This document shows, one piece after another, positions 1 through 21,351 of a stretch of DNA of 64,000 nt. The number at the start of each line of letters is the position of its first letter. The stretch's first letter is position 1. This DNA comes from Nitrospirales bacterium (lineage in GTDB: Bacteria; Nitrospirota; Nitrospiria; Nitrospirales; UBA8639), in NCBI GenBank assembly GCA_965223295.1, contig CBDCWC010000003.1:256001-320000 (forward strand), in the 5' to 3' direction. Below the pieces are notes generated by a model, which did not search any database, had not been told where the DNA came from, and saw only the letters and a list, made by a program, of their open reading frames with translations. Made by a program: the position numbers and the translations under genes.

Positions 1-966
1 TGGGATGGATCTAATGCACCACATTCTCTGAATGAAACTGCCAGCAGTCGGCGGACCACCAAAATTCTCAATCATGCACGGTCAGACTCTATAACATTTA
101 TCGACCTTGAACGCACCAATTCAGATGGATATTCGGCCCGTCGGCAAGTAGTATATGTCGTCCCAAGCCTTTGGTTCATTCTTGACAATGTTTCCGGTAA
201 TACAGGAAGTCGAACAGTTTGGAATACAGCTAGCAACATCCATCTGATTGAAAATAGAGGCTCGGGTGCCGTGAAATCATACACCCTTCACTCAAGGAAA
301 ACTGATGCAAATCTAGAAACGTTTTTTTGGGGATCAGCAGGGAGTAAAATTACTACTGTTCAAGGGGGCATGGAACCCTTTGCTGGGTGGGAAGTTCTTG
401 CATTCAGACCAACACCTACTTCTGCCGTTGTTGTCGAGCAACCGCCCAAAGAGGCATGGTCAGCTGCGGCCTGGGCTTGGCATAGCAATGAAACCGAGGG
501 TTCTATCCAATTTCACACCGCCCCTTCGATGAAGGATTGGAATGGTGCTGAAAAATGGGAAGTCGACCTCCCAATTAAATCTGGAGGGATGACTATCGCA
601 CGAAAGGGCAAGCAAATAGTTCTTCAAGATTTTCATGACAAAACCAAGATTCACACCTTAAAGCTCAGCCCACCGCCAAACATTCGTGAAAACGTCGCCA
701 ACATACACAGAAGCTTTTCAAAAACCGCAAGCAAGCACCAAAAATTCAAGGATTTTTATGGCTATCGGCTAAGATTTTCTTGGATATTATGCGCTCTTTT
801 GATACTACAAGAAGTATTGTTTTTCGCCGTTAAAAAATCCCAAAAGACACAGCGCGCTAACATCCTAGCCCTCATAGCTCTAACTTGGACGGTTACTGTT
901 GCACTAACCACATTCTTTAATCAGATTTTAGAATTCTCCAAAAATGTAGCTGAAGGGCTAAACTAG
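1..966 (+). CDS. 5'-truncated protein with C-terminal membrane anchor; possibly the C-terminal part of a heparinase II/III-family protein
   Basis: Frame 1 is open from base 1 (WDGSNAPHS...YSARRQVVYVVPSLWFILDNVSG...) into the 271..966 ORF. The RRQVVYV..WFILD segment resembles the heparinase II/III C-terminal beta-sandwich. Two hydrophobic helices at the C-terminus. Family call tentative. Confidence 0.45.
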   Translation, partial: WDGSNAPHSLNETASSRRTTKILNHARSDSITFIDLERTNSDGYSARRQVVYVVPSLWFILDNVSGNTGSRTVWNTASNIHLIENRGSGAVKSYTLHSRKTDANLETFFWGSAGSKITTVQGGMEPFAGWEVLAFRPTPTSAVVVEQPPKEAWSAAAWAWHSNETEGSIQFHTAPSMKDWNGAEKWEVDLPIKSGGMTIARKGKQIVLQDFHDKTKIHTLKLSPPPNIRENVANIHRSFSKTASKHQKFKDFYGYRLRFSWILCALLILQEVLFFAVKKSQKTQRANILALIALTWTVTVALTTFFNQILEFSKNVAEGLN

Positions 967-1179
967 CAATTCTCCTACTATTCATATGGGCCATATTAGG
1001 CATTCAGGCGGTATACCTGCTTATATCTTTCAAGAGATTGCCCTTGTTCTTTGTTGGTTTTATATGAGTATACTAAAGACTATATTTCTCGAAAATCATG
1101 GCGAGTCCAATCACATTCTTGACAATCATGTAGCACGAATTCCTTCAGTCATTCACACTATTGGCCTCATAATCTGAAA

Positions 1180-1195
1180 TGGTAACACGCTTGCA
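1180..1195 (+). promoter_or_regulatory. Putative sigma-54 (-24/-12) promoter upstream of the GT2 gene
   Basis: TGGTAACACGCTTGCA has GG-N10-GC spacing and a TTGCA -12 box, in an intergenic region ~215 bp before the ATG at 1409. Confidence 0.35.
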
Positions 1196-1408
1196 AAATT
1201 GACAACATACTCATCTATTTAAACTTCGTATCTGGTGGAAAATTCCTGCATATGTCCTTTTCAAATATGATTCGACACACGGAAAGGTTAAGCCTTCTTC
1301 AACTTACCCATTTGTCAACGCTAATAAAAGTAAAAGCACTCGTAAACTTATAGATATGGCCACCTCTCCAAATGATTAAAACAATTCATATACTAAAGAT
1401 TTAGCACC

Positions 1409-2317
1409 ATGCCCAAAAATTCATGTGTCTCTATAGGCATTCCCGTATACAATGGAGAGAGATTTCTTAAAGAAACATTAGACTCTCTTCTCGCCCAAAC
1501 ATTTGAGGATTTGGAAATCATTATTTCAGACAATGCATCTACCGACCAAACAGAATCTATTTGCCGTTTCTATACAGAAAAGGATTCCAGAATTCGATAT
1601 GTGAAAAATCAGAGAAATATGGGGGCAGCATACAACTACAACCATACATTCGAACTCTCTTCTGGAAAATATTTTAAGTGGGCAGCAGCCGATGACCTCT
1701 GTGCTCCGAACTATATAGAGAAATGCGTCGCCTCACTCGAGAGACGCTCAGAAGTTGTTCTGTGTTATTCGAGAGCCACGCTGATCGATGAATACGGACA
1801 ATGCATTCGACAAGCCAATATCGATCCTAATCTCGACTTACCATCAGTGACATCTCGTTTTCATCGCGGAGTATGCAATATTAGCCATTGCAATGCCGTA
1901 CTAGGAGTCATTCGCACAGATATTCTAAAGAAGACGCGATTAATTCAAAATTTTACTCCTTCTGATAAAGTACTACTGCTCGAGCTTCTCCTCTATGGGC
2001 CTTTCATTGAACTCTCTGAATATCTCTTCTTTCGAAGACTACATCCAGCAGCTTCTGGTCATATTAAAACAATCGAAGCTCAGCAGGAATTCTATGACCC
2101 TGAAACCAAAGGCAAAATATTTTTATTTGCTTGGAACTTTCTTTTTCAAAAACTCATGATTGTGAAGGATGCTCCCTTCGGTCCAAGCCAAAAAATGCGA
2201 ATGTTTTTAAGTATCGCAAGAAGAATGCTAACGGATCGAAAACGATTACTGACAGAACCTCTAATTGGGTTGATGCTGCTTTTCGGCATGAAAGCTACAT
2301 CAAAAACAGAGATCTGA
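1409..2317 (+). CDS. Glycosyltransferase family 2
   Basis: VSIGIPVYNGERFL, IISDNASTD, YFKWAAADD motifs. Confidence 0.93.
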   Translation: MPKNSCVSIGIPVYNGERFLKETLDSLLAQTFEDLEIIISDNASTDQTESICRFYTEKDSRIRYVKNQRNMGAAYNYNHTFELSSGKYFKWAAADDLCAPNYIEKCVASLERRSEVVLCYSRATLIDEYGQCIRQANIDPNLDLPSVTSRFHRGVCNISHCNAVLGVIRTDILKKTRLIQNFTPSDKVLLLELLLYGPFIELSEYLFFRRLHPAASGHIKTIEAQQEFYDPETKGKIFLFAWNFLFQKLMIVKDAPFGPSQKMRMFLSIARRMLTDRKRLLTEPLIGLMLLFGMKATSKTEI

Positions 2318-2368: not shown

Positions 2369-3397
2369 ATGCGAGTTCTTGCCGTTACAAATATGTACCC
2401 CACGCCCGAAAATCCGACATTAGGAACGTTTGTGCAACAACAGCTTCAAGGGCTTGAAGCCTTTGGACTTGAGGTGGATGTGCTATGCGTGAAACGCGTC
2501 GAGCAAGGGAGAAAAACCTATCGAGAGCTTGGGAAAGCTCTTTCTACAAAAATAGCAGAATTCAACCCTGATATCGTACATGCATTATATGGAGGACTCC
2601 TCGCAGAAACTGTAACGAGAATCGTCAAAGATCGTCCAGTACTTGTTTCATTCTGTGGAACAGATCTCCTTGGAGGTTCGTTTTTTAACTTTTTTAAACG
2701 AATCACTGTCCGCCTAGGAGTATTTGCATCCTATTTAGCTGCCAAAAGAGCAGATGGCATCATAGTAAAGTCCCAAAACCTGAGAGCGGCTCTCCCTAAA
2801 AACATTGACGGACAAAAGGTGTGGATCATCCCCAATGGTGTGGATTTAGATCGTTTTCAACCACAGGATCGCGTAACAGCTTGCTCTCAGCTAGGTTGGG
2901 ACGCTAGTCGCTTCAACGTTTTGTTTGCAGATAAAGCCCACCGTCCACACAAAAGATTTGGACTCGCTAAACTAGCTGGAGAAAAATTAATCGCCAATGG
3001 AGTCCCTTTAAAACTAAAAATTCTTACAGGGGTCCCACATCACGAAGTTTCTACTTGGTTAAATGCAAGCAATGTGCTCTTACTAACTTCTTATCAAGAG
3101 GGGTCGCCAAATATCGTAAAAGAGGCCCTTGCCTGTAACCGTCCTGTCGTCTCTCTTGATGTTGGAGATGTCAAGGAGCGCATTCACGATCTCGAGGGGT
3201 GTTATATCGCTGAACCAACTCCTTCTGATTTAGCTGAAAAACTGATGCATGTATATAATGGGCCCGGCGTTACACCAGGACGTTCAAAGATGATGAACTT
3301 ATCCTTAGATCGAGTTGCGCAACAACTGCTTGACATTTACCAAACCATCCGCGAGGGGAAAGATACATCCGGGTGCACACGACAGGCTACACGTTGA
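2369..3397 (+). CDS. Glycosyltransferase family 4 (TuaC-like)
   Basis: VTNMYP..GTFV N-terminus, IPNGVD, EGSPNIVKEALACNRPVV (EX7E) motif. Confidence 0.92.
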   Translation: MRVLAVTNMYPTPENPTLGTFVQQQLQGLEAFGLEVDVLCVKRVEQGRKTYRELGKALSTKIAEFNPDIVHALYGGLLAETVTRIVKDRPVLVSFCGTDLLGGSFFNFFKRITVRLGVFASYLAAKRADGIIVKSQNLRAALPKNIDGQKVWIIPNGVDLDRFQPQDRVTACSQLGWDASRFNVLFADKAHRPHKRFGLAKLAGEKLIANGVPLKLKILTGVPHHEVSTWLNASNVLLLTSYQEGSPNIVKEALACNRPVVSLDVGDVKERIHDLEGCYIAEPTPSDLAEKLMHVYNGPGVTPGRSKMMNLSLDRVAQQLLDIYQTIREGKDTSGCTRQATR

Positions 3398-3464: not shown

Positions 3465-4361
3465 ATGTTACCCACTTTTATTGGAATTGGCCCAGGCCGC
3501 ACGGGAACGTCCATGCTCTATGAGCTTTTACTTGAGCATCCTGAAGTATCACTAGCTAATGGAACAAAAGAAACTAGTTTTTTTACTTTCGAGTATCATA
3601 AAGGAATTAATTGGTACCAAAATTTTTTCAGATCTTCGACAAACGCAAAAGCTATTGGTGAAATCTCCACCTCATACTTCTATGATGAAAGAGCTCCTGA
3701 GCGAATTTGTGAAATTCTGCCAAAAGCACGATTATTCACCTGTCTTCGAGATCCTTATGAGAGACTACATTCCGTATATATCTATAGAAAACGATCCAAG
3801 CAAATTCCTCATGACATGCCTTTAGAGAAAGCTCTGTCTATTTACCCAGATCTCATATACGACAATTGTTATTACACTCATTTAAACCGATATTTCTCAC
3901 TCTTCCCAAAAGAGCAAATCTGTGTTTTGCTATATGATGATTTGGTAGCTACACCACAACACTTTGTTCAAAAACTCCTGTCGTTCATTGGTGCCAATCC
4001 AGACTTCACGTCCACTGTCATCAACCAACGAATTAATGCTAGCTCAGTGCCACGATCACAGTTAATAGGCTACCTCGCTGCATTTACAGCAAACTCCTTG
4101 CGGAAAACCGGTTTCTTGAGAGTTTTAGACATCTTAAAGCGATCAAGCTATGTCAGGAAAACTGTCCTAAAACCAACCGACGAAGTCACCCGTGATCCAT
4201 CAGTATGCTTACAATATAGTACCCTGCAAAAACTGAGGGAAGTATGGGAGCCACAGATAAGGGCGATTGAACAGGTGGTTGGTCGTTCACTTCAACACTG
4301 GCTCAATAAGCCGTACGAAAACATTTTAGCTAGCAAGAAATCTACAGCAGATTCTTGTTGA
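3465..4361 (+). CDS. PAPS-dependent sulfotransferase
   Basis: 5'-PSB loop LPTFIGIGPGRTGTS, KETSFF, GEISTSY and 3'-PB motif LRDPYERLHS. Confidence 0.92.
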   Translation: MLPTFIGIGPGRTGTSMLYELLLEHPEVSLANGTKETSFFTFEYHKGINWYQNFFRSSTNAKAIGEISTSYFYDERAPERICEILPKARLFTCLRDPYERLHSVYIYRKRSKQIPHDMPLEKALSIYPDLIYDNCYYTHLNRYFSLFPKEQICVLLYDDLVATPQHFVQKLLSFIGANPDFTSTVINQRINASSVPRSQLIGYLAAFTANSLRKTGFLRVLDILKRSSYVRKTVLKPTDEVTRDPSVCLQYSTLQKLREVWEPQIRAIEQVVGRSLQHWLNKPYENILASKKSTADSC

Positions 4362-4662: not shown

Positions 4663-5937
4663 GTGCACAACGAATGTCATACAATAAGGCCTCAGAAGCT
4701 AACGCAACATCGAACGACAAGATTTGAACAGTTTCTACTAATCGTTACCGTCTCGATACTACCGTTACAGGCACATCTTCCTACAATTGGAGGAGCAAGC
4801 ATATTATTTATCCTCTTTGGTATTTTAGGGGTCTTTCTTTTATTGCTTAGACAACAATTTCTGTTTCGAACACTAATTCACCCTGTATTTTTGAGCACAT
4901 ATGCACTGGTAGGCATTGGCTTCTTCATGGAGCTTGTTAATAATAGCACTGGCTTTTTTGAATTGGTACGCATTGGCTTCATGATCATCGGAGGCATTGT
5001 CATCGCATCATTTTGTAGAGACGGGAAAGCCCTACTGTATGGAATGTATGGTTTCCTCATTGCCAGCATTTGGCTATCAATCCTACTTTTCATGTCAACC
5101 TATGGTTCACTAAGTTCTGCAAAAGTAGAAAACTTTGAGGAAGCATCTAAGCTTCGCTCTCGTGTCTTTGCCGAAAGCCCGATTTACCAGAGTCCCAACA
5201 CAATGGCAGCCTTCACTGCCCAGGGTTCAGTGGTCGCTCTTGCCCTAGCGCTTACAGCAAGAGGGTATTACCGCCGATATGTGTTTCTGGGCACAACTAT
5301 TTTTTGTTCCATCGCCACTTTGTTACCAATGTCCAGAGGTGGCGTAGGAATCCTTCTCATCTCGTGTGCTGCTATTCTACACACCTATGGATTTAGGCAC
5401 TTAAGAGTGCTGTTAACTATTGTGGTCTTGGCCATCGGGATGCTGCTCTGGGTACCGGACGTCATATATAAACGCATGACGTTCTCGATGGATAACCCGC
5501 GTGGCGAAAAAGTTGAAGGACGATCTCGCGTATATTCCGCAGCCATTGACCATTTGCCGGAATATCTATTGACTGGTGTGGGAATAAGTAATTTTTATGG
5601 AAAATGGGGTAAACAGAGCGGCTTCGCTAACAGCCGGGGCATGGTTGCAGGAAGTCACAATTGCTTTACGCAGGTGACTCTCTACTGGGGACTCCCGGGA
5701 CTTTTAGGATTACTAACCATCATGTGGCAAGCGTACACTTGCGTGCCAAAAACCAATAAAAGCGATCCCTTAGTCTTGTGTTTGATTGGGATTTCCGTAT
5801 CCGTATTGGTTCTCTCACTCGTGATGCACCACCTCTTTGCAAAAGAATTTTCACTAGTACTAGGGATGTTAGTCGGAACAAATCTTTGGATCTCACGCCG
5901 TCGGACCAACAATCCCCAACTAGACAAAGTTTCGTAG
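4663..5937 (+). CDS. O-antigen ligase / Wzy polymerase-family membrane protein
   Basis: About 10-12 TM helices, SRGG motif, periplasmic R..Y...LLTGVG..SHN motif. Start codon uncertain. Confidence 0.85.
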   Translation: MHNECHTIRPQKLTQHRTTRFEQFLLIVTVSILPLQAHLPTIGGASILFILFGILGVFLLLLRQQFLFRTLIHPVFLSTYALVGIGFFMELVNNSTGFFELVRIGFMIIGGIVIASFCRDGKALLYGMYGFLIASIWLSILLFMSTYGSLSSAKVENFEEASKLRSRVFAESPIYQSPNTMAAFTAQGSVVALALALTARGYYRRYVFLGTTIFCSIATLLPMSRGGVGILLISCAAILHTYGFRHLRVLLTIVVLAIGMLLWVPDVIYKRMTFSMDNPRGEKVEGRSRVYSAAIDHLPEYLLTGVGISNFYGKWGKQSGFANSRGMVAGSHNCFTQVTLYWGLPGLLGLLTIMWQAYTCVPKTNKSDPLVLCLIGISVSVLVLSLVMHHLFAKEFSLVLGMLVGTNLWISRRRTNNPQLDKVS

Positions 5938-6078: not shown

Positions 6079-7170
6079 ATGAAATGCTGTCTACTCTACC
6101 TTATTGGTCAACTGCGTCCAGGAGGACAAGAGCAACAACTCTGTCATTTGTTACATGCATTAGATCGTAAGCGTTATAGACCAGTTGTCGCTGTTTGGAA
6201 CTATTCCGAACACGATATCAATCTGGCAAAAATTCGCTCACTCGATGTTCCCGTATATCCCCTCTCAAGCTCACCATCGCCCACCACGAAGTTTTTGCAA
6301 TTTCGCAAGCTTGTGAAAAAATTGCAACCAGAAGTTGTGCATTCTTATAGCTTTTGGACAAATAGTATTGCGTATATGGGAGCAAAAGGGTTAAGAGCTC
6401 TTTCCATAGGTTCCGTGCGAAGTGACTTAGTTCGACTAAAAAAGAAAACCGGTCCTTTGATAGGACACTTGAACGCACGCTGGCCAAGACAGCAAATCTA
6501 CAATAGTTTTTCCGCTGCGCGGACTGCTTCATCTATAAACAGTTTCTTTGTTCCACGTTGTATATATGTCGTTCCGAATGGCCTTGATCTTGACCATTAT
6601 CAACCGACTCCTATTCAAGACACTCCGCAAGGCGTAGCGCTTGGAGTCGGCTCACTGATTTCAGTGAAGCGATGGGACCGGTTACTCAAAGCCACCTTCG
6701 AGTTAAAACGAAAAGGGCATAACTGCTTTGTACAGATAGCTGGAGATGGTCCATTGCGCCAATCCTTAGATCAGGAAGCTCACAATCTTGATCTTGATGG
6801 TAATATCGAATTTCTTGGACATCGAGATGACATTCCTGGATTACTTGCTAGCTCCTTATTCCTTGTTCACACTTCTGACGTCGAGGGTCGCTCGAATGTG
6901 GTTATGGAAGCCATGGCATGCGGGCGGGCCGTTATTGCCACCGATTCCGGAGATATCTCTAAAATGATCGAAGACGGGAAGACCGGATACATTGTCCAAC
7001 GTCAGGACGATGAAGCATTGGTCAAGTGCATGGAAGAGCTTTTTTACAATAGGAATCTATGCCGTATCATGGGTGAAGCTGGACGCGCTAAAGCTGAGAA
7101 AGAGTTTCCGTTGAGTCGCCTTGCACAAGAAACACTAAAAGCGTATAGATCCGCAGGTTGGAAGAATTGA
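6079..7170 (+). CDS. Glycosyltransferase family 4
   Basis: GGQEQQL, VPNGLD, EGRSNVVMEAMACGRAV motifs. Confidence 0.92.
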   Translation: MKCCLLYLIGQLRPGGQEQQLCHLLHALDRKRYRPVVAVWNYSEHDINLAKIRSLDVPVYPLSSSPSPTTKFLQFRKLVKKLQPEVVHSYSFWTNSIAYMGAKGLRALSIGSVRSDLVRLKKKTGPLIGHLNARWPRQQIYNSFSAARTASSINSFFVPRCIYVVPNGLDLDHYQPTPIQDTPQGVALGVGSLISVKRWDRLLKATFELKRKGHNCFVQIAGDGPLRQSLDQEAHNLDLDGNIEFLGHRDDIPGLLASSLFLVHTSDVEGRSNVVMEAMACGRAVIATDSGDISKMIEDGKTGYIVQRQDDEALVKCMEELFYNRNLCRIMGEAGRAKAEKEFPLSRLAQETLKAYRSAGWKN

Positions 7171-7171: not shown

Positions 7172-9091
7172 ATGTGTGGAATTGCTGGGTGGTTAGGAGT
7201 CCTACCCAATAGTGACAACATAGGACAACGGCTGGCTACTGCGCTAAAACATCGAGGACCAGATTTATTTGGTGTACGTTCTTGGGCTGAGGCCACGCTT
7301 GTTCATACTCGTCTAAGTATCATTGATCTTTCTCCATCTGGGTCTCAACCAATGTCTGACAAGACTCACACTGTCTGGACTGTTTTTAACGGCGAAATCT
7401 ATAACCATCGCCAATTACGAACAGAGTTAGAAAATCAAGGACACAGTTTTCGAGGCCATTCTGACACGGAAATTCTGCCATATCTATACAAAACTGAGGG
7501 ACAAAGCTTCCTTTCCAAATTACGTGGTATGTTTGCTTTCGCAATCTTCGACACTCGAACGAACACCCTTCTATTAGCCCGGGACCGATTTGGGATTAAA
7601 CCTCTTTTTTATTCTCTGGGGAAGAACTACCTTGCGTTTGGAAGTGAAATCAATGCACTGGCTGAAATCCCCGACATTGACTTCCAGATCAATCGCCAAT
7701 CACTCTATGATCTCGCAGGCCTTTCCTTTATTCCCGCCCCAGAAACAGTTTACACCAACATACAAGCGCTTCAGCCTGGTGAACTTATTGTCGCTCAGTT
7801 TGTAAACAATAGTATTGAATGGAAACGGTTCGTATTTCATCGTTGGTCCATGCAACTAGATTATAGCCTGACTCTTGACAAAGCCATCGACATTACTGAG
7901 TCCCTTCTCTCGACTGGTGTCCAACGCCAACTAGAAAGTGATGTTCCTCTTGGCACTCTCCTCAGCGGTGGAATTGATTCTTCTTTAATCAGCGTAGAAG
8001 CTCAAGCCATGACGAATAGTCCGTTACGCACCTTTAATGCACGTTTTTCAGAAGAAACATATGACGAAACATGGGCTGCGGTAGCAGTGGCTAATCACGT
8101 AGGAAGCAATCATCACACATTGCACTTGGATCACTTTACTGGAACCTGGGAAGAAATTACGAACCTCCTTTTGCATGCCGGCCAGCCCTTTGCTGACACT
8201 TCGATTTTTGGGGTACATAAGATATGTCGTGCTATGCGTGAATATGTGACAGTCGCCTTATCGGGAGACGGTGGCGATGAAGGATTTGGAGGATACAATC
8301 TTTACTGGCGACTTGCTCAACTCGTTCACCTGCAAAAAATACCTGCACAGTTTTGGAAGATTGTTACCGCTCTCATACCTCAAACTGAGTTTTGTGGCAT
8401 TAAGCCTGAAGCATATACTCGTCGGCTTCAATCACTCATTAGACCTGACAATACCACTACCGTTCAAAGTTTGTTTTCTTGGATGTCAGAGGACAATCTT
8501 AAGCATCTTTGCTGGGATCAAGATTACCTCCCCATTCGAAGATTCTTTGAGCCACAATGGATCAATGACACTGAGGGAAGTCATTCTCGCCTTGAACGTT
8601 TATCTGGGCACCTGACTGAAATTAACACGCGACTTATCCTCGCCAACGACTTTCTTTTCAAGGTGGACACGGCAAGTATGAAAGAAAGCCTGGAAATCCG
8701 TGTCCCAATGCTAGACGAAGACCTATTCACTTTTGGGCTTTCTCTTCCTCACAAACTCAAGGTAGAAGGCAAAACCTGCAAACGCGTCCTACGAGGTCTT
8801 GCTCAACAGAAACTACCCCCTGCCGTCGCTAATAAAGCCAAACGCGGCTTTGCTGTTCCAGTGGATAAGTGGGTTAACGAAAATTTTAAAAGTTTCCTGA
8901 GCGATACCCTGTTAAATTCGTCCTCTAGGTTATCGACATATTATCGCCCCGAAATCTACCAACCAATCGTTAGAGCCTTCTGCAAAGGAGAATCGTATAA
9001 AGGTCTATCAAGAAAATCTCTATACCGTTGGGTCATACTCTTTTTATCGGTTCACCTAGTAGCCAGTAAACGCCCACCTACTATGAGTTAA
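7172..9091 (+). CDS. asnB: Asparagine synthase (glutamine-hydrolysing)-family amidotransferase, polysaccharide-locus type
   Basis: MCGIAG N-terminal nucleophile, HRGPD, RLSIID, FNGEIYN, LLSGGIDSS, LSGDGGDEGFGGY. Confidence 0.95.
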   Translation: MCGIAGWLGVLPNSDNIGQRLATALKHRGPDLFGVRSWAEATLVHTRLSIIDLSPSGSQPMSDKTHTVWTVFNGEIYNHRQLRTELENQGHSFRGHSDTEILPYLYKTEGQSFLSKLRGMFAFAIFDTRTNTLLLARDRFGIKPLFYSLGKNYLAFGSEINALAEIPDIDFQINRQSLYDLAGLSFIPAPETVYTNIQALQPGELIVAQFVNNSIEWKRFVFHRWSMQLDYSLTLDKAIDITESLLSTGVQRQLESDVPLGTLLSGGIDSSLISVEAQAMTNSPLRTFNARFSEETYDETWAAVAVANHVGSNHHTLHLDHFTGTWEEITNLLLHAGQPFADTSIFGVHKICRAMREYVTVALSGDGGDEGFGGYNLYWRLAQLVHLQKIPAQFWKIVTALIPQTEFCGIKPEAYTRRLQSLIRPDNTTTVQSLFSWMSEDNLKHLCWDQDYLPIRRFFEPQWINDTEGSHSRLERLSGHLTEINTRLILANDFLFKVDTASMKESLEIRVPMLDEDLFTFGLSLPHKLKVEGKTCKRVLRGLAQQKLPPAVANKAKRGFAVPVDKWVNENFKSFLSDTLLNSSSRLSTYYRPEIYQPIVRAFCKGESYKGLSRKSLYRWVILFLSVHLVASKRPPTMS

Positions 9092-9092: not shown

Positions 9093-9143
9093 AGAAGTGG
9101 TCCCCGATTTTTGGACAGCCGGATAAGTGAAGATTCTACCTGC
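9093..9143. mobile_element. Orphan IS3-like terminal remnant
   Basis: AGAAGTGGTCCCCGATTTTTGGACAG resembles IS3-family termini and the MITE end at 10375 (AGTGG.CCCC.......GAC). No partner end or ORF found. Confidence 0.45.
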
Positions 9144-12678: not shown

Positions 12679-12717
12679 TGACGTGCCCCCAGTGATTGTT
12701 CCAGTGTGCATGCAGCT

Positions 12718-13560
12718 TTAAGCGCATTTTGGAATTAATGCCTCAGGGGTTGGTGGTTTGTATCCTAAAGCGCTATGGGGACGCACCTGCTTATAGTGTT
12801 GCCGCCACCATTCGATGAGCACTTGCGCTTCCCGGAGCGTATAGAAGATTTCCCCGTTCAAGAGCTCATCCCGCAGTTTGCCATTCAAACTCTCATTATA
12901 GCCATTCTCCCAGGGGCTGCCTGGTTCGATAAACAAGGTGCCGACCCCTAGCTGGGCGAGCCATTGTCGAACAGCCTTCGCGGTAAATTCTGGGCCGTTA
13001 TCCGAACGAATATATCCCGGACAACCGTGCTGCAGAAACAGCTCAGCCAGCCGATGTAGCACATCATCGGCTCGAAGATGCCGAGCGACCTCAATAGCCA
13101 AACATTCTCGGGTATATTCATCGACAATGGTCAGCAAGCGTACCGGGCGACCATCATGGGTCCGCGTGGCCACAAAATCGTAGGCCCAGACATGATTTGG
13201 ATGTTGAGGCTGGAGCCGCACACAGGAGTCCTTGTTGATCCAGAGTCGCCCCCGTTTGGGTTGCTTCTTCGGCACTTTTAAGCCTTCCCGCCGCCAAATC
13301 CGTTCCACGCGTTTATGATTCACGTGCCAGCCCTCGACTCGAACCAACGCGGTGATGCGTCGGTAGCCATAGCGCCCATACTTTCGAGCCAGCCGCACAA
13401 TCGTTTTAGTTAACGCTTCTTCGTCCCCTCGGACCTGAGCCTGATACCGCTGTGTCGATCGAGGTTGCCCCAGCACCTGGCACGTCCGCCGTTCCGCCAC
13501 CCTCAGTCGTTGCCCAATGGTGTGAACGGCTCGGCGGCGTCGGGTGGGGCTTAGAAGTTT
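12718..13560 (-). CDS. IS3 transposase OrfB (probably expressed by -1 frameshift)
   Basis: [38 protein letters not shown]; frame open up to the GGGAAAC site. Confidence 0.9.
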
Positions 13561-13829
13561 CCCTCAGCTGCTTCCTTCAGAATCAATTTATCCAGGGTGA
13601 GATCTGCCACGGCTCGCTTCAAGCGGGCATTCTCGCGCTCCAAGTCTTTGAGTCGTTTCGCCTGATCAAGTTTCAGTCCACCATATTCCTGCCGCCACCG
13701 ATAGTAGGTGGGATCGGTGATATTCCACTTCCGACAAATGTCTTTGACGGTCTGCCCTTGCCCCAACAGGACCTCCGCTTCCCGCAGTTTGTGAATGATT
13801 TGTTCAACCGAGTACTTCACACGTGCCAT
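13551..13829 (-). CDS. IS3 transposase OrfA
   Basis: [19 protein letters not shown]...EAAEGNF; RBS GGAGG; G GGA AAC slippery heptamer at the end. Confidence 0.9.
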
Positions 13830-14194
13830 GATACCCTCCTTTTTTATATGCCCTAGCCTGTAACATAGGCCTCGGAGCCGTTTAAAGGGGGCACGCCAGT
13901 ATCTTGTGACGCTGCATGATCTTGGCAATCCGGTTCTTGCCCACGCACTCACCCACCTCGCGTAGATCGCAAAGAATGCGGGGGGACCCATACGTGCGGC
14001 CACTCGCTTCATACGACTCCCGAATGAGTCCCAGCAAACGATCATCGTCTTGAGACCGTTGTGAGGGAGGGCGCTCCAACCATGCATCATAGCCACTGCG
14101 CGAGACCCCAAATAGGCGACACATCGGCTGGATCGCGTACCGGTTGTGATGTTGCAAGATGAACGCGTACCTCACGCCGGGTTTTTCGCGAAGT

Positions 14195-15520
14195 GGGCCT
14201 GTAAGATTAAGTGTGTAACTGGTTATCATAACGGATTTTTCAGAAGGAGAACATGATGACCAAGCCAAACACAAAAACCGATGCGTTATTGGATGACTTA
14301 TTAAAAGACTGTGAGTCGCCCGAAGATATTCTGGGGGAACATGGCCTTTTGAAGGATTTAACCAAACGGCTCGTGGAACGGGCGTTGACAGCTGAATTGA
14401 CGAATCATCTGGGCTATCCCCCTTATGCCCGAGGCCTTTCTCAGGGTGGGAACACTCGGAATGGGACGAGCTCGAAAATCATTCAAACGGACCAAGGGCC
14501 GGTCGAACTGGCCGTCCCCCGAGATCGTGCGGGCACGTTTGAACCCACGGTTGTCCCAAAACGGCAACGGCGCTTGGAGGGGTTTGACGACAAAGTGCTG
14601 GCCCTCTATGCCCATGGGTTGACCACGCGGGAAATTCAAAGTCATCTGGAAGACTTGTATGGAACTGAAGTCTCGCCCACACTGATTTCGACGATCGCCG
14701 ATGCCGTCTTAGAAGATGTGCGGCTCTGGCAGAGTCGGCCTTTGGAGATGGTGTATCCCATCCTGTATTTCGATTGCCTATTTGTGAAATCGCGGCATGA
14801 GGGGGCCGTCAAAACCAAAGCCGTGTATGTCGCCCTCGGCGTGACACTCACGGGAGAGAAGGAACTGCTCGGGCTCTGGGTCAGTGAAACCGAAGGAGCC
14901 AAGTTTTGGTTAGCGGTGTTCACGGAATTGCAACAGCGAGGCGTACAGGATTGCTTTGTCGCTTGTGTCGATGGGCTGATCGGGTTACCCGAAGCCTTAG
15001 AAACCATCTTTCCCCAGACACAGGTGCAACTCTGCATTGTCCATAAAGTGCGCCACGCTTTACGGTACGTGGTCTGGAAAGAACGTCGCCCTGTTGCCCG
15101 CGATTTACGAGCGATCTATGGAGCGCCCACTCTTTCAGAAGCCGAAGACGCCTTGGAGAACTTTGCTCAACTGTGGGATCAAAAATATCCCACCATTAGT
15201 GCCAGTTGGCGACGAGACTGGAAGCGACTGACGGTGTTCTTCGACTATCCGTCCGAGATTCGGAAAGTGATCTATACCACGAACGCGATTGAATCGCTCA
15301 ATTATTCATTGCGGAAGGTGCTAAAAAAAACGGGGGGCGTTTCCGACGGATGAAGCCATTCTCAAAGTCCTCTATCTCGGAATGCAGCGGATTGCCAAAA
15401 AATGGACCGTACCCATTCCCGAGTGGAAACGCGCCCTCAATCAATTTGCCATGATTGTTGGAGACCGCGTGCCCATAATTGATTAACCACGATCAGTTAC
15501 ACAGATAACTTGACAGGCCC
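14195..15520 (+). mobile_element. Nested IS256-family element (1326 bp)
   Basis: IRs GGGCCTGTAAGATTAAGTGTGTAACTG / CAGTTACACAGATAACTTGACAGGCCC; 8-bp target duplication CGCGAAGT (14187-14194 and 15521-15528). Confidence 0.95.
14253..15486 (+). pseudogene. IS256 transposase with +1 frameshift in an A8 run near 15323-15330
   Basis: PRDRAGTFEP, YPILYFD, QLCIVH, IYTTNAIESLN. Removing one A restores RGAFPTDEAILKVLYL...VPIID* ending at 15486. Confidence 0.88.
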
Positions 15521-16216: not shown

Positions 16217-17650
16217 ATGGATACACAAACATTTTTCAGGAGGTTTTTGATGCCCTACGCTTTTAGCTCACTTTTAGCAATATTGTTTTTGACTTCAATT
16301 GTGTCATATGCGAATGCTCAAACACTTGCATTTCCTGGCGCTGAAGGATTTGGCCGATTTGCGAAGGGAGGTCGTGGAGGGAGGGTTATCGAGGTAACCA
16401 ATTGGAATAATTCCGGAGCCGGCAGCTTGCGTGCTGCCCTTGAGGCATCTGGACCGCGTACGATCGTGTTTCGGGTAGGTGGAACTATCAATCTCTCTGA
16501 CAGAATCACGATTGTTAACCCATTCGTCACGATCGCTGGTCAAACTGCTCCCGGTGGGGGAATTCAGTTGAAAGGAGGCGGACTTAGAGTAAGAACAAAC
16601 GACGTAATTATTCGCCACATTCGAGTTCGCCCTGGCCCAACAGCGCCAAACCCTGAATCACATAATGCCCTTAACATAGTAAGCTCGGCAAGCCATGACG
16701 TGATCATAGACCATGTCTCAATGAGTTGGGCTACAGATCAGGTGAATGGCGTGGGTGGGTTAGGAGGGCCGTCGAATGTCTCAATCCAATGGAGTTTCAT
16801 TACAGAATCGCTAAACTGTGCAAACCCTCCGCATCCGGATGGCTGCCACGGCAAAGGTTCCTTGATCGGAGGTAGCGGGGACAACCTGTCTTTCCATCAC
16901 AATCTTCTTGCACATCATCCTGATCGGAACCCTTTGGTTACAACTGGAGACATTGATTTCGTCAATAATGTTGTATATTACAATAGCCTAAATGGCACTA
17001 CGTTGTGGCCAGTGGATTCGGTTATAAGAGCCAACCTTTTGCATAATAAGTATATACTCGCCTCAAATCCCATAAAGCCTGACAAGGCACCTGTAAGGCT
17101 TATAGGTGGTGCAACTTTTAACTCAGGGTCAGGTATTTATCTTAAAGGGAACATTCATACGAATGTTCGGCCAGATAACTCAGGTCCCGAAGATAACGTT
17201 ATTAGACGTTCTTCTGGGCCTCCAGATTTCCCAGTGGTTACATCCAGATATACCCATCCTCAAGTAACGACCACGAACGCGTTCCAAGCGGAAATCGATG
17301 TTTTGGCCCAAGCGGGTGCCACCCTTCCAGTTCGAGATTCTGTTGATACACGTATCGTTAATGAAGTTAAGAACAAAACAGGAAAAATCATAAATGACCC
17401 TTCCCAGGTAGGTGGTTATCCAACCTTAGCGTCTGGGTCTCCTCCCACCGATAGTGACCATGATGGAATGCCAAATAGTTGGGAAGTCGCTCAGGGCTTC
17501 AATCCCAACAATGCCTCCGATGGCCCACAAGATGCGGATGGAGATGGCTACACAAATCTAGAAGAGTTTCTCAACAACACTTCTTCAGGCTCTGGAGATA
17601 ATAGTGCACCCAATGCACCGACGAATCTCAGAACAATAACTCAGAATTGA
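16217..17650 (+). CDS. Secreted pectate-lyase-like (PL1-type beta-helix) protein
   Basis: Signal peptide; AFPGAEGFG..GGRGG, TIAGQTAPG, IIDHVSMSW, HHNL...RNP; C-terminal DSDHDGMP / DADGDGYTNLEE Ca-binding-like motifs. Confidence 0.9.
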   Translation: MDTQTFFRRFLMPYAFSSLLAILFLTSIVSYANAQTLAFPGAEGFGRFAKGGRGGRVIEVTNWNNSGAGSLRAALEASGPRTIVFRVGGTINLSDRITIVNPFVTIAGQTAPGGGIQLKGGGLRVRTNDVIIRHIRVRPGPTAPNPESHNALNIVSSASHDVIIDHVSMSWATDQVNGVGGLGGPSNVSIQWSFITESLNCANPPHPDGCHGKGSLIGGSGDNLSFHHNLLAHHPDRNPLVTTGDIDFVNNVVYYNSLNGTTLWPVDSVIRANLLHNKYILASNPIKPDKAPVRLIGGATFNSGSGIYLKGNIHTNVRPDNSGPEDNVIRRSSGPPDFPVVTSRYTHPQVTTTNAFQAEIDVLAQAGATLPVRDSVDTRIVNEVKNKTGKIINDPSQVGGYPTLASGSPPTDSDHDGMPNSWEVAQGFNPNNASDGPQDADGDGYTNLEEFLNNTSSGSGDNSAPNAPTNLRTITQN

Positions 17651-17693: not shown

Positions 17694-18695
17694 TTAGAAA
17701 TTATATGGTGAGAAAGCTTTATCGCAAGTTTTCTTGATCTGTATGAATACAGTCTCTGGAGGATTTCTAACTTTTTGAATCCCTTTACATACACAGGCCC
17801 GAGCAAAACAAAAGGATGAGTTTTTTTGTCGCTCGAATTGCTTTCGAATCACCTGGAATTGTGCTGAGTAGTGGGGAAACGTTTTTTCGAGTGCAGCAAG
17901 TTGGGTAATATGAACAGAATGATAGTAAGGACTAGCAATGGAACCAGAAAGGTCGTAACACGACCAATACCCAGCATTGTACTTAGGCAAATATTTGACA
18001 AGAGTGCCTAAGGTAACATCCAAAACTTTTGTATCATCAGGTCCCTCAGCGAGAATTAACCAGTCATATAACCCATATAGAGCACTTATCCAGCCATTAA
18101 GCACACTATTGGGTACATGTCGTGGGTATTCCTCGAGTATCAATCCCTCGGTAACAGCCCTGCAAGTGCCTCCTTCCTGTAGTGATTGAAGCATAAATTG
18201 GACGCCACGACGAGCTGCTTCTTTATATGCAGTATCCAATGTTTCCACGAATGCCCGCACAAGGACCGAGATAGCCTGTCCCTGTGCCAATGCAGAGTAC
18301 GGAACCGTATACACTGGTTTCTGCATGGACAACAGCTTCCATGCACCTTGGGGTTCTTGAGATGCAACAAACCAACGAGCAAGTTGTAAAAATTTTTCTC
18401 TATGTTTTTCTTCATTTTTCGAACTTTGCAACCAACAACTCCAATGACCAAGAGCTTTTTGTGCTAGAAGAATTGGGTGGTGGAACGGCTTCCCATTTGG
18501 CTCTTGAACAAGGGGAAGACCTTGATGATCAACAGTCCCATTCCACTCTGCCTTTGACGAATAGTCTCGATAATAGTCCTGCAACTCTCCAGGTTTAAAC
18601 AGAGGAGATAGGCCGTAGGCAGCATGCCAGTAACTGCGCCCGCCAAACATCCGAAACCAATGCCCAAATAAAGCTTTATAGTAAAGAAATCGCAC
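17694..18695 (-). CDS. D-glucuronyl C5-epimerase family protein
   Basis: YSALAQGQAISVLVRA, LEEYP, VLNGWISALYGLYD, YDL...YHSVHITQL match the C5-epimerase C-terminal domain motifs. Confidence 0.88.
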   Translation of the reverse strand: MRFLYYKALFGHWFRMFGGRSYWHAAYGLSPLFKPGELQDYYRDYSSKAEWNGTVDHQGLPLVQEPNGKPFHHPILLAQKALGHWSCWLQSSKNEEKHREKFLQLARWFVASQEPQGAWKLLSMQKPVYTVPYSALAQGQAISVLVRAFVETLDTAYKEAARRGVQFMLQSLQEGGTCRAVTEGLILEEYPRHVPNSVLNGWISALYGLYDWLILAEGPDDTKVLDVTLGTLVKYLPKYNAGYWSCYDLSGSIASPYYHSVHITQLAALEKTFPHYSAQFQVIRKQFERQKNSSFCFARACVCKGIQKVRNPPETVFIQIKKTCDKAFSPYNF

Positions 18696-18844
18696 TAAAT
18701 TGCTCTTGTTCGTTGTTAAAACATTTTTTCCTGTTACGAATTCCTACAATGAGGTTTTTCACGTCATGTCACTTGCTACCTCAAGAATGGCCACGTAGGC
18801 TTATACCTCGTATTAGGTTCAACATTGTTATTGACTTAACATGC

Positions 18845-20113
18845 TTACAACACTCCTTGTAAAATAGCATTCAGTTGTTTTGATATCTGGGGCCATTGGT
18901 ACAGTTCAGTCTCTTGAGGGCGGTCAAATACCCGCACCATAGCTTCTCGAATAAAGGATGTAATGCCACAAATATCATCCCCCGTAAAACTTTGACCCAT
19001 TTCATCGTTCTTAAGAATTACTTCGATATCACTTCCTGAAGGTGCGATCGACAGAATTCGTGTTCCCAAGCCCAGTGCTTCAAAAACCTTGCTCGTCACA
19101 ATGCCTTTGTCTTCCATAGTGGCATTTTCCGCGACTGACGTCACAACAACAGCAAGATTTGCGCCGCAGATGGCAGAAAGAGCATCGACTCTGGGGACAT
19201 TTCCGTGAAATACCACACGATCTAGTATTCCAAAACGTTGAGCTTCTGTCCGGACATGGTCTACCGATGGACCAAAGTAATGAAAAGCCCAAGGATGTGC
19301 TGTTTCATCATAAGCATCCTTCAGTCGACTAAGCGCAGCCATCACAGGTGAAATCAAACGCTTCGTTCGATAAAAAACTCCGGTATAAACAATGGAAAAG
19401 TGTTTAAACCTATATGGTTCTATCGTTTCTAATTCTTCAGGATCGTAGCCATTTGTGATGACATGTAGCTTCGGCCCAACACCGAAACGTTTTTCGAGAA
19501 TAGCCCTCCAAGATGGAGACACGATGGTTGCCGCAGAACACCCCTTAAGCAACCGCGCCTCTTCCCGAAAGGTAGCTGCACGAGCCGGGTAGGCGGCATG
19601 AGGGTTACTAGTCCAAGGATCTCGATAATCCAAAACAAAAGGCCGGTTAAGCCTGCTTGCTAAACGCTCAGCAAGCCTAAAAGCTGTAAAGGGTTTTCCT
19701 GTTGCGAGAATCACATCCACGTCTTTTGCGGTCAACGAAGAACACGATTTTTCCGCTGCTTTGTTCCAACCTATAGCGGGATCTATGGCAAATCGGCGCG
19801 CAACCTTTCTGAAGATTCCGCCGATCAGCCAGCCAAGCTTTTGGTTACGGCACTTCAAATCATTCGTCGCTAGATAACGAAATTGATGCCCCGTATCTAT
19901 ACGTTGGATATTTTCTTGCTTCAACTTGTCATCAATCGTGTCGAGAATATCAACGCGCTTCCAAATAGAGGCATGGGGAGTCACGACTGTAACATTCCAC
20001 CCATGTCGAGAAAGATACTTGGCAAAAGCCCAGGTACGAATACATCCTGGGGCATTCAATGGTGGGAATGGCCAAGCCAGGAATAGTAATTTAGGGCCTC
20101 GGGATAAACTCAT
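18845..20113 (-). CDS. Glycosyltransferase family 4-like
   Basis: AWPFPPLN..G..R, DYRDPW, ITNGYD, SKVFEAL. Confidence 0.88.
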   Translation of the reverse strand: MSLSRGPKLLFLAWPFPPLNAPGCIRTWAFAKYLSRHGWNVTVVTPHASIWKRVDILDTIDDKLKQENIQRIDTGHQFRYLATNDLKCRNQKLGWLIGGIFRKVARRFAIDPAIGWNKAAEKSCSSLTAKDVDVILATGKPFTAFRLAERLASRLNRPFVLDYRDPWTSNPHAAYPARAATFREEARLLKGCSAATIVSPSWRAILEKRFGVGPKLHVITNGYDPEELETIEPYRFKHFSIVYTGVFYRTKRLISPVMAALSRLKDAYDETAHPWAFHYFGPSVDHVRTEAQRFGILDRVVFHGNVPRVDALSAICGANLAVVVTSVAENATMEDKGIVTSKVFEALGLGTRILSIAPSGSDIEVILKNDEMGQSFTGDDICGITSFIREAMVRVFDRPQETELYQWPQISKQLNAILQGVL

Positions 20114-20139
20114 TATTTTCTAGATATAGCTTAAGAGAC

Positions 20140-21351
20140 TCATTTCTGAGCAGTTAAATATTCTATGAATCGATTAGCAATTGTCGAGCGATCAAAATGT
20201 TGCACCGCAGCTTGACGCCCCTTCTCTCCAAGTTTTTCACGAAGATCTTTATTTGCGTATAATGTTAGAATTGCTTTGACTAATCCATCTGTATCTCCCG
20301 GAGGCACTACAATTCCAACTTGATGCTCTCGCACGATATCCGCAGCTTCCCCCTTTGCGACTAAGATCACGGGCCGTCCACATGCCATAGCCTCATACAA
20401 TTTTGAAGGAACTGCCCCAGAAATGTCTTTTTTCAAGGGAACGATTATCACAGCACTAGAAGAAAGCGCCCGGGGGATTTGATCAGATGATAGAGCAGCA
20501 AAGAAACGGACATTCGCAAGATTTTGCTGCCTAGCCAGAGCCACAAGCTTTTGCTTCTCCGGGCCGTCCCCAATAAGATGAAAGACAATATTGTCATCTG
20601 GCCTCAACACATTTGCACTTTCTAAGATCTGCTCTAAGCCCTGAGCCAGGCCATGAAGACCAGCATAGGTGACGAGAAACTTTTCTTGTTGATTTGCAGC
20701 ATTTGATACATCCTGATTACTCAACGCTTGAGGAAATCGTTGAGTATCTACACCATTGGAAAGATGGTACACTCGTCGATCTGGAAAGCGGCGCTTTATC
20801 GAATCAATGATACCTTTGGATTGGCCTGTAATAAGCCAGGCATTCCGATAGCACAATGACTCGAGCCAGACACTGACTCTATAAGCCATCCCGCTATTCC
20901 GTAGGACTCCCAGCTGTACAGCACTTTCCGGCCACAAATCAGAAACATTAAAAATCATTTTTGCCCGCTTTATTCGGCTTAACCAAATTCCGGTGAGACC
21001 CAAGAAAAGTGGTGGGCTCTCAACAAGCAAATAGTCGGTGCAACGAAGCTTGAAACTACCTAACACTGCTGATGAAAGTGCAAACGAAAAGTAATTTGTC
21101 AGTCTTGGTAGGAAAGCAGCTTTCTGTGTAGGATAAATGAACGTACGAAAAACATCCGCTCCTTCAAGAAGTTCTCGGCGAAATATACCCCCATATCCAG
21201 GGTGAATTTTTCCGGTTGGGTAGTTAGGCATTGCCGTAATAACGGCTACCGAGTGCCCGCTACGAATAATATGCGCAACAATTTCAGAAAGTCTCTTTTG
21301 AGGAGCACCTATTTCAGGAGGGTAATACTGTGTTAAGACGGTAATGTGCAC
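20140..21351 (-). CDS. Glycosyltransferase family 4 (WbuB-like)
   Basis: TQYYPPEIGA, MPNYP, VSDLWPES, VPSKLYEAMACG. Confidence 0.92.
   Translation of the reverse strand: MHITVLTQYYPPEIGAPQKRLSEIVAHIIRSGHSVAVITAMPNYPTGKIHPGYGGIFRRELLEGADVFRTFIYPTQKAAFLPRLTNYFSFALSSAVLGSFKLRCTDYLLVESPPLFLGLTGIWLSRIKRAKMIFNVSDLWPESAVQLGVLRNSGMAYRVSVWLESLCYRNAWLITGQSKGIIDSIKRRFPDRRVYHLSNGVDTQRFPQALSNQDVSNAANQQEKFLVTYAGLHGLAQGLEQILESANVLRPDDNIVFHLIGDGPEKQKLVALARQQNLANVRFFAALSSDQIPRALSSSAVIIVPLKKDISGAVPSKLYEAMACGRPVILVAKGEAADIVREHQVGIVVPPGDTDGLVKAILTLYANKDLREKLGEKGRQAAVQHFDRSTIANRFIEYLTAQK

Follow-up and report, generated by a model that had tools for sequence, protein, structure and literature searches.

What kind of polysaccharide is encoded by a locus in which a homologue of the animal heparan sulfate (HS) C5-epimerase, Glce, and a sulfotransferase of the type dependent on 3'-phosphoadenosine 5'-phosphosulfate (PAPS) occur among the genes of a bacterial repeat-unit pathway? 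The question is raised by a 64,000-nucleotide stretch, henceforth the window, from a nitrite-oxidizer-type Nitrospirales bacterium (G000:C3:256001-320000, G000 being the genome under study; 3.78 Mb, 3 contigs, 100% completeness). An earlier note on this DNA had read positions 1-21351 of the window as specifying a sulfated, possibly L-iduronate (IdoA)-containing, amidated/acetylated polysaccharide, and had called it a bacterial heparan mimic. The first half of this proposal stands as a fair prediction: an intact sulfotransferase, epimerase homologue, AsnB-type amidotransferase and SGNH-type enzyme, along with two proteins with uronate-lyase folds, point to a polysaccharide that may be sulfated and contain a hexuronate, possibly IdoA. 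The second half falls short for reasons of backbone and cellular location, which are set out below. As the best explanation of the whole we favor, with moderate confidence, a Wzx/Wzy-dependent exopolysaccharide (EPS) locus related to the XrtA type, with a variable and strain-specific core, whose predicted product is a sulfated acidic heteropolysaccharide, uronate-epimerized and tailored at the repeat-unit stage. Such a product would be glycosaminoglycan (GAG)-like in its chemistry, combining sulfate with uronate, and not in its backbone or site of modification.

The epimerase homologue and the sulfotransferase

Unless stated otherwise, genes were identified by Pfam and NCBIfam scans of the listed open reading frames, and signal peptides and membrane segments were called with a crude Kyte-Doolittle hydrophobicity scan. 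Every gene named in the earlier note was recovered at its place in the window and appears intact. The only PF06662 (C5-epim_C) protein of the genome, scoring 114.7 bits against a cut-off of 23.3, is a Glce-type hexuronyl C5-epimerase homologue of 333 residues encoded at 17694..18695 on the reverse strand. In phmmer searches of the PDB it recovers the zebrafish (E = 1.7e-16) and human (E = 5e-16) Glce proteins. The catalytic residues of the human enzyme, E499, Y500, N510, Y560 and Y578 (PMC13308652), align with E189, Y190, N200, Y247 and Y258 of the window protein, so that all five are kept, and the lack of catalytic residues that the earlier note had thought would tell against it is not seen. 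Across 37 epimerase homologues E188, E189, N200, Y247, Y258 and H262 are invariant, which thus includes four of the five catalytic positions. A structural model built on 21 sequences (pLDDT 92.7) is almost wholly helical, and the first eight Foldseek matches to it are all Glce structures (E = 5e-11 to 2.6e-10; 28-30% identity), with a root-mean-square deviation of 2.4-3.8 over 210-214 columns.

The window protein hence shares with animal Glce (PDB 4PW2, 6HZZ) the α-helical catalytic domain, the Pfam family, the five catalytic residues and the best-matching fold. It differs in being confined to that domain: the strong part of the alignment is limited to residues 97-270 (chain residues 368-557), and the N-terminal β-hairpin (dimerization) and β-sandwich domains of the animal enzymes, as well as their signal anchor, are absent. 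It differs further in its setting, which is a Wzy-type locus beside genes for GT4 glycosyltransferases. The hydrophobicity scan revealed no hydrophobic segment and no signal peptide. The protein is therefore predicted to be cytoplasmic, where it probably acts with glucuronate (GlcA) to IdoA as the model reaction, its substrate probably being a lipid-linked oligosaccharide or a nucleotide sugar rather than a finished polymer.

The sulfotransferase (3465..4361, forward strand) is a protein of 298 residues with matches to PF00685 (57.4 bits, cut-off 22) and PF13469 (49 bits, cut-off 27). Its top PDB matches are the sulfotransferase domain of NDST1 (E = 6e-19) and the HS 3-O-sulfotransferases (E = 2e-16). 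The stretch GPGRTGTS (residues 9-16) aligns with GPQKTGTT of NDST1, E66 with the Glu of its FEKSANYF stretch, and LRDPYERLHS, which spans R95..S103, with LINPADRAYS; we take these motifs to be the PAPS-binding 5'-phosphosulfate loop and 3'-phosphate motif. Among 32 sulfotransferase homologues K35, G65, E66, R95 and P97 are invariant. This protein too lacks hydrophobic segments and a signal peptide in the scan and is predicted to be cytoplasmic. A bifunctional CysN/CysC protein is encoded elsewhere in the genome (C3:530830-534276; 1013.5 bits, cut-off 715), so that PAPS would be available to the sulfotransferase.

The genome also encodes a second CysN-like protein (G000:C3:1018464-1020296; L004:145-1977), which scores under the curated cut-offs and retains only the first half of the APS-kinase domain (profile positions 2-81 of 152). 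Another sulfotransferase gene lies at C2:1322444, about 11 kb from the only exosortase gene of the genome (C2:1310995; region G000:C2:1310995-1323211), and two further ones stand 0.6 kb apart at C2:1463218-1465216; the sulfation capacity of the genome is thus not limited to the locus considered here.

Repeat-unit assembly, export and tailoring beyond the cytoplasm

The locus reaches beyond positions 1-21351, extending about 10.6 kb leftward into sugar-nucleotide genes and a gene for the Wzx flippase, and rightward to about 46.5 kb through the primer and export genes to PrsT. With a total of about 57 kb, positions 1-21351 are therefore its variable middle. Neither this continuation nor the four insertion sequence (IS) elements in 9140-15520 had been recorded in the earlier note.

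Five glycosyltransferases, one GT2 and four GT4, match both halves of the glycosyltransferase fold. On the forward strand these are the GT2 enzyme (1409..2317; PF00535 110 bits, with EpsE and TuaG as top NCBIfam models, both far under cut-off), GT4a (2369..3397; Glyco_transf_4 and Glycos_transf_1) and GT4b (6079..7170; PF00534 110 bits, and TIGR03088 at 140.8 bits, under its cut-off of 409). On the reverse strand, upstream of the epimerase gene and in its orientation, are GT4c (18845..20113; Pfam and NCBIfam) and a WcaI-like GT4 enzyme (20140..21351; subfamily NF007640 at 202.6 bits, under its cut-off of 276). Between the two forward GT4 genes, beyond the sulfotransferase gene, lies that for a Wzy_C-domain polymerase or ligase (4663..5937, forward; PF04932 39.2 bits, cut-off 31.7) with at least nine hydrophobic segments.

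A priming module follows to the right on the forward strand, with a DegT-type aminotransferase (28286..29452; PF01041 457 bits) and a 983-residue protein (29449..32400) that fuses PF02397, PF02719 and PF00072 in one frame (TIGR03025 294.6 bits, cut-off 295.55). Its layout is a PglC-like phosphoglycosyl transferase (residues 3-195), CoA_binding_3, a PglF-like Polysacc_synt_2 dehydratase (503-786) and a receiver domain (852-963), through which the priming step would be under direct phosphorelay control. Positions 32470..39673, with genes on both strands, encode Wza-like exporters, a chain-length determinant, an XrtA-associated ATPase-like protein, a tyrosine-kinase-like protein and an EpsL-like outer-membrane barrel (the last on the reverse strand; Pfam and NCBIfam), and a PrsT-type TPR lipoprotein (44072..46504, reverse; TIGR02917 418 bits, cut-off 312) forms the right end of the locus. 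The combination of Wzx and Wzy with five glycosyltransferases and a primer of the PglC/PglF/DegT type predicts a multi-sugar repeat unit.

Four further proteins of the locus have possible tailoring roles. The AsnB-type glutamine amidotransferase (7172..9091, forward; TIGR01536 402 bits, cut-off 267) begins with MCGIAG, so that the Cys2 nucleophile is present; it has no hydrophobic segment or signal peptide, and it scores 381.6 bits with the XrtA/PEP-CTERM amidotransferase model TIGR03108, under the cut-off of 816.9. The SGNH-type esterase or O-acyltransferase (10914..12047, forward; Lipase_GDSL 24.9 bits, cut-off 23.6), which is flanked by IS elements, shows the blocks GDS103, GVSG, GND and DDGH351, and an N-terminal membrane anchor (hydrophobic segment 11-29). 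Third is a secreted PL1-type β-helix lyase with C-terminal TSP3 repeats (16217..17650, forward) and a signal-peptide-like N-terminus. It has no Pfam lyase match, and the NCBIfam PelZ model scores 176 bits, under its cut-off of 840; the assignment comes from the PDB, where it matches the pectate lyase 9BUJ (E = 2.1e-31) and VexL (6FI2; E = 2.1e-12). Its DHxSxSW (IIDHVSMSW) and HHxxRxP (HHPDRNP) stretches align with the solved lyase, and the Arg of the latter is presumably catalytic.

The fourth is the possible heparinase II/III-like protein that the earlier note had suspected at the left edge. The frame at 1..966 (forward) has no Pfam match by itself, being the 3' end of a 763-residue gene whose start, G000:C3:254675, lies 1,326 bases outside the window on the left (L080:1676-3967); over its full length both domains are above cut-off (Hepar_II_III_N 44.3 bits, cut-off 22; Hepar_II_III_C 47 bits, cut-off 24), and the suspicion is borne out. 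The AlphaFold model (pLDDT 87.4) has the fold of these enzymes, an α/α toroid with a β-sandwich, and matches in Foldseek searches heparinase III (4FNV; E = 7.6e-20, TM 0.60/0.69), human dermatan sulfate (DS)-epimerase 1 (6HZN; E = 8.5e-15), an exo-heparinase and the PL17/PL15 alginate lyases. Hydrophobic segments at residues 7-25, 699-717 and 728-746 indicate membrane anchoring. N224-H225 and Y278 are invariant in 34 homologues, and their 53-residue spacing resembles that of H202/Y257 in heparinase II and H202/Y258 in Alg17c, residue names that come from PDB titles and are compared here by spacing and not by residue-level superposition. Sequence searches of the PDB gave no useful match for either this protein or the SGNH protein. 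The SGNH enzyme, the PL1-type lyase and the heparinase III-fold protein are all predicted to lie outside the cytoplasm.

The membrane-anchored form of the heparinase-like protein (about 745 residues) represents a large and well-conserved family, which at E <= 0.001 numbers at least 723 members. Its best 120 matches, the window's own entry excluded, have 39-46% identity over 88-99% of the length, and the few named members come from Entotheonellia and Rokuibacteriota metagenome-assembled genomes (MAGs). The literature searched held no description of a role for this family in biosynthetic loci.

The gene content, the intact catalytic motifs, the folds, the supply of PAPS and the lack of export signals are what the data show. 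Taken together, these genes can be arranged into a pathway in which the acceptor sugars, the stage of tailoring and the expression of the locus are what we infer. The repeat unit would be assembled on undecaprenyl phosphate, with the PglC/PglF/DegT module as primer and the one GT2 and four GT4 enzymes adding further sugars. At the cytoplasmic face the Glce-type epimerase would invert C5 of a hexuronate, the sulfotransferase would add sulfate from PAPS, and the AsnB-type protein may amidate a carboxyl group. Wzx would then flip the unit, the Wzy_C protein polymerize it, and the polysaccharide co-polymerase (PCP) and Wza-type proteins export the product. Outside the cytoplasm the membrane-anchored SGNH enzyme might acylate or de-acylate the polymer, and the secreted PL1/VexL-like lyase and the membrane-anchored protein with the heparinase III/DS-epimerase fold might trim or further modify it. 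That epimerization, sulfation and possibly amidation are placed on the lipid-linked unit, or in the case of the epimerase alternatively on a nucleotide sugar, follows from the cytoplasmic location of PAPS, the formation of a Wzy polymer outside and the lack of export signals; with neither signal peptide nor membrane segment, the epimerase and the sulfotransferase would not act on a finished external polymer in the manner of the animal Golgi enzymes.

It is on these points that the heparan or heparin mimic, with a GlcA-hexosamine backbone epimerized and sulfated at the polymer level as in animals, appears highly improbable. The nearest solved relatives of the sulfotransferase are indeed the HS N-sulfotransferase domain and the HS 3-O-sulfotransferases, those of the epimerase are HS Glce proteins, the locus encodes a heparinase III-fold protein, and a PIG-L family de-N-acetylase upstream (L001:15038-15748, 51.2 bits) would permit deacetylation followed by N-sulfation, though neither this protein nor the NDST1 match fixes the acceptor. 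However, a domain of the heparosan-type synthase, the processive GlcA/GlcNAc co-polymerase, was found in none of the 22 + 29 + 18 frames scanned in and around the locus, the remaining genome lying beyond this search. Further, Wzx, Wzy_C and five glycosyltransferases predict a multi-sugar unit; the two key enzymes are devoid of export signals, whereas a Wzy polymer forms externally; the epimerase has neither the β-hairpin nor the β-sandwich of Glce; and a PL1 lyase is better suited to a galacturonate-type than to a heparan-type linkage. The earlier note's heparan mimic is not supported.

A differently organized bacterial GAG-like route is a distinctly unlikely, more specific version of the pathway. 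In it the Glce-type epimerase and the NDST/3-OST-like sulfotransferase would operate in the cytoplasm on an undecaprenyl-linked unit, PIG-L maybe freeing an amine for N-sulfation, to give an EPS bearing IdoA and sulfate, and the protein with the heparinase III/DS-epimerase fold would perhaps be a periplasmic polymer-level uronate C5-epimerase, an analogue of AlgG, and not a lyase.

Could the glycan instead be transferred to proteins or lipids, as in O-glycosylation or a lipopolysaccharide O-antigen, with the Wzy_C protein as a ligase or oligosaccharyltransferase? In favor of this, Pfam gives PF04932 the name 'O-antigen ligase', bacterial protein glycosylation uses priming modules of the PglC/PglF/DegT type, and large adhesin-like proteins are encoded adjacently at 21473-27432. 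In the archaeon Halobacterium salinarum, moreover, a lipid-linked tetrasaccharide that is both sulfated and IdoA-bearing is transferred to proteins (PMC13308652, PMC11980604). Nevertheless, an exported polymer of high molecular weight is indicated by the genes for the chain-length determinant and for the tyrosine-kinase-like, Wza-like and PrsT proteins, and the two lyase-fold proteins suit a polymer, which makes this alternative very improbable.

The adhesin-like region, on the reverse strand between the tailoring and the priming genes, comprises a Lcl_C-domain protein and a 1,732-residue protein with Big_9, cadherin, PKD and DUF1349 domains, both with signal-like N-termini; the gene of the latter has a GC content of 50.7%, against 43-45% in neighboring genes. 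The left flank encodes an NAD-dependent epimerase, three C-methyltransferases, a nucleotidyltransferase, the PIG-L protein and Wzx (Pfam). The three sugar C-methyltransferase-type genes are consecutive and lie 5' of Wzx, followed by the nucleotidyltransferase and the de-N-acetylase (L001:10480-15748; G000:C3:246480-251748), with the zinc-binding Methyltransf_13 domain in the third only; this trio suggests that the polymer may also contain a branched or methylated sugar. Toward the right end, 41761..42777 (reverse) encodes an NAD-dependent sugar-nucleotide 4-epimerase or dehydratase (PF01370 199 bits; PDB 5U4Q 252 bits, 6ZL6 168 bits). It is a possible UDP-glucuronate 4-epimerase, since we take the 6ZL6 series to be such enzymes. 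Like the two lyase-fold proteins, this gene and the three UDP-sugar dehydrogenases encoded in the genome speak for a uronate context.

Co-occurrence, mosaicism and insertion sequences

Several observations weigh against the preferred reading of a sulfated and epimerized repeat-unit polysaccharide. Y190, a Tyr in the window protein, varies among the 37 bacterial homologues of the epimerase, and the 5'-phosphosulfate loop of the sulfotransferase has an Arg at the site of the NDST1 Lys; K or R occurs at this site among family members. The absence of signal peptides is a call of the crude hydrophobicity scan alone. A UDP-glucose dehydrogenase was not found in the locus, the three UDP-sugar dehydrogenases of the genome all lying outside it. 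Among the XrtA-type matches only PrsT passes its curated cut-off, the ATPase (245.9/324.5), exporter (116.6/180), chain-length determinant (119.7/278.85) and amidotransferase models all falling under theirs, and the sole exosortase is on contig C2, which is why we label the locus as related to the XrtA type. Four IS elements stand between the tailoring genes and could block transcription, and among public sequencing runs no RNA run containing window positions 1400-9100 was listed.

To these may be added the phyletic evidence. Epimerase homologues were found in 0/49 other genomes of the genus, 1/114 of the family and 4/400 of the order (the last at E <= 1e-20), and Sulfotransfer_3 genes in 21/49 other genomes of the genus, often clustered. 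We then considered foreign loci, i.e. those outside this genome, counting a sulfotransferase within 10 kb as near the epimerase homologue. An alignment of 21 closer sequences recovered 73 GTDB epimerase-homologue loci, only three of which (L010, L020 and L034) have such a sulfotransferase; a Pfam check of 102 loop-motif-selected frames out of 5,580 returned the same three loci, a count that may miss sulfotransferases without the loop or of other Pfam families. Of 80 metagenome loci (48 of at least 6 kb), screened with the family hidden Markov model only, four have the pair, three of them apparently from one organism. Even L026, the closest GTDB relative locus (G252, the single match in the family), is without a sulfotransferase within 10 kb, its only family sulfotransferase being on another contig. 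The co-occurrence that the earlier note had looked to is thus mostly wanting, and the kit is not conserved. Given the rarity of the pairing and its lack in L026, the two enzymes may well modify different sugars, or indeed different glycans.

These data raise a mosaic alternative: that a sulfotransferase block (the heparinase-like gene to AsnB) and an epimerase block (the lyase gene to the WcaI-like glycosyltransferase) are independent modules joined by recombination that form no functional kit, with the epimerase making UDP-L-IdoA from UDP-GlcA and the sulfotransferase marking a different residue or glycoconjugate. Besides the scarcity of the pair and the uneven spread of the two families in the genus (21/49 against 0/49), it draws support from the composition of the left block, whose GC content of 43.1% against a genome mean of 47.1% is at about the 1st percentile among 10-kb windows, and from the UDP-GlcA to UDP-L-IdoA route proposed for Gae of Escherichia coli O112ab, which its source states to be without experimental support (PMC7685785). 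Against it, the closest homologues of the epimerase and the sulfotransferase are both from Nitrospira sp. M1 (identities of 71% and 74%), with protein accessions only five apart, and the pair recurs in a related strain seen in two metagenome runs. In L010 and L020, too, sulfotransferases directly adjoin the epimerase homologue. Further, L026 retains, along with its epimerase (57% identity) and lyase (50%), orthologues of Wzy (49%) and GT4a (56%), which in the window belong to the 'sulfotransferase block'; the blocks are therefore not cleanly separable, which weakens the mosaic reading, and we regard it as rather unlikely.

The tightest cluster of this kind seen, at L020:7065-10970 in a Phototrophicaceae MAG, has three sulfotransferase genes flanking the epimerase homologue at 8973-9959. 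The usual direct neighbors of epimerase homologues are GT4 genes: within 1.5 kb, GT4b is found in 25, WcaI in 10 and GT4a in 7 of 72 GTDB loci, and in the 80 metagenome loci GT4b in 48 and WcaI in 32. PF14099 polysaccharide-lyase genes occur in certain actinobacterial loci whose epimerase homologues are distant (L056:2597-3802, L057:6389-7726, L066:987-2282), and L050 carries a UDP-glucose dehydrogenase; these are further links of the epimerase family to uronate polymers.

As for the IS elements, an IS3-family element (IS-A copy 2; HTH_Tnp_1 and rve fragments) occupies 9140..10374 and has a 99.8% identical inverted copy at C3:253411-254646, just upstream of the heparinase-like gene. In an IS nest at 12088..15520, IS-B (12679-13898) interrupts what remains of an IS3-type element, and an IS256-type element lies at 14194-15520; the genome has seven extra copies of IS-B and two of the IS256-type element. 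In metagenome run X5, from another study, a single contig covers 6188-9092 (AsnB), joins to 16712 and continues into the epimerase gene, so that a related strain exists without IS-A copy 2, the SGNH gene and the IS nest; cover gaps in X5/X6 (10673-12006, 16009-16675) were interpreted only where a contig spans them. In the same two runs the sulfotransferase region is covered and the epimerase retained. Since the related strain carries only the upstream copy 1, IS-A copy 2 is a later insertion, and the SGNH gene arrived with the IS elements. In runs X1 and X4, where the window occurs almost unchanged, one contig passes from 12675 to 13904 with four different letters separating the two positions; IS-B is thus missing in part of those data, pointing to recent or ongoing transposition. 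A composite transposon bounded by the inverted IS-A copies, with the 10.5 kb between them (heparinase-like gene to AsnB) as its cargo, was considered and rejected, as no target-site duplications were found in any arrangement and the related strain has copy 1 only.

From these insertions it might be argued that the locus is under inactivation, with the operon broken by recent IS events and no tailored polymer made in this strain: the four elements are 99.8-100% identical to other copies, IS-B is polymorphic, and the related strain lacks IS-A copy 2 and the IS nest along with the SGNH gene. Yet every coding frame of the locus is uninterrupted, the elements fall in the interval that separates AsnB from the lyase gene, the lyase gene is preceded by about 700 bases of its own DNA, and the epimerase operon is on the opposite strand; we accordingly consider inactivation improbable. 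The X5 contig that bridges AsnB and the epimerase, the sulfotransferase region in the same runs and the pair in Nitrospira sp. M1 indicate that this is one locus and not an accident of IS insertion.

Known systems and implications

The individual parts of this locus have precedents, and what sets it apart is that such parts are rarely found together. A 2011 catalogue of short Glce homologues from polysaccharide loci includes a 323-residue protein of E. coli O112ab, whose O-antigen contains L-IdoA (PMC3068255). One bacterial Glce homologue, from Bermanella marisrubri, has been characterized (Raedts 2013, as cited in PMC13308652). The E. coli O112ab and Shigella boydii 15 clusters resemble the present locus in placing a short cytoplasmic-type Glce homologue within a Wzx/Wzy repeat-unit locus (PMC3068255, PMC7685785). 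They differ in that the accessible parts of these papers report no sulfotransferase, amidotransferase or lyase genes, and in that the O112ab glycan is an O-antigen and not an EPS with PCP, Wza and PrsT export genes.

For sulfation, the closest parallels are the synechan (xss) cluster of Synechocystis PCC 6803, with two sulfotransferases in a Wzx/Wzy EPS cluster (PMC8205485), and a putative sulfated GAG-like cluster of Pontiella sulfatireligans F21 (PMC7356697). Common to these and our locus are PF00685/PF13469 sulfotransferases among GT2/GT4 and Wzx/Wzy or similar genes. In both of those systems a sulfated extracellular polysaccharide is produced or detected. The available text of the two papers mentions no Glce-type epimerase (the word 'epimerase' occurs 0 times in that of PMC7356697) and describes no uronate-lyase-fold proteins. 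With respect to the proposed mechanism, H. salinarum combines GlcA to IdoA epimerization by Agl32 with two sulfotransferases on a short lipid-linked glycan (PMC13308652, PMC11980604, PMC12624080). Unlike the window epimerase, Agl32 has an AGE-like fold, is no Glce homologue and is without the Glce catalytic residues; it belongs to an archaeon, in which the glycan is attached to proteins (PMC13308652). The literature search, which extended to journals outside subscription, returned no description of a sulfotransferase and a Glce-type epimerase in one bacterial EPS locus, nor of sulfotransferase/epimerase loci in Nitrospira.

Biosynthetic loci that encode enzymes with lyase folds for their own polymers likewise have parallels. 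Alginate loci encode AlgL and AlgG, own-polymer enzymes with lyase folds, and VexL (6FI2) is, we presume, a pectate-lyase homologue of Vi-antigen loci. These systems are like ours in having an exported lyase-fold enzyme for their own uronic-acid polymer inside the biosynthetic locus, and unlike it in being ABC-transporter- or synthase-dependent and in making homopolymers, whereas the present locus is Wzy-dependent and has two different lyase folds.

In terms of wider implications, sulfated GAG-like polymers have been repeatedly measured in the EPS of granular sludge and anammox systems, with their producers and pathways stated to be unknown in the accessible parts of the reports (PMC7356697, PMC10483923). 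The window offers a concrete candidate locus in which sulfation, C5-epimerization, amidation, acylation and two lyase folds come together, and the related strain without the IS insertions provides a natural comparison. If the predicted chemistry is not true, this would be one more variable polysaccharide locus. If it is true, it would be the first genetic handle on a sulfated uronate EPS in Nitrospirales; it would also suggest what the large family of membrane-anchored heparinase-like proteins does, and supply a small soluble Glce-type epimerase along with an NDST-like sulfotransferase for possible use in enzymatic GAG-type synthesis. Finally, should the GAG-like route hold, an EPS with IdoA and sulfate in a nitrite-oxidizer lineage would represent a genetic source for the 'sulfated GAG-like polymers' of nitrifying and granular biofilms.

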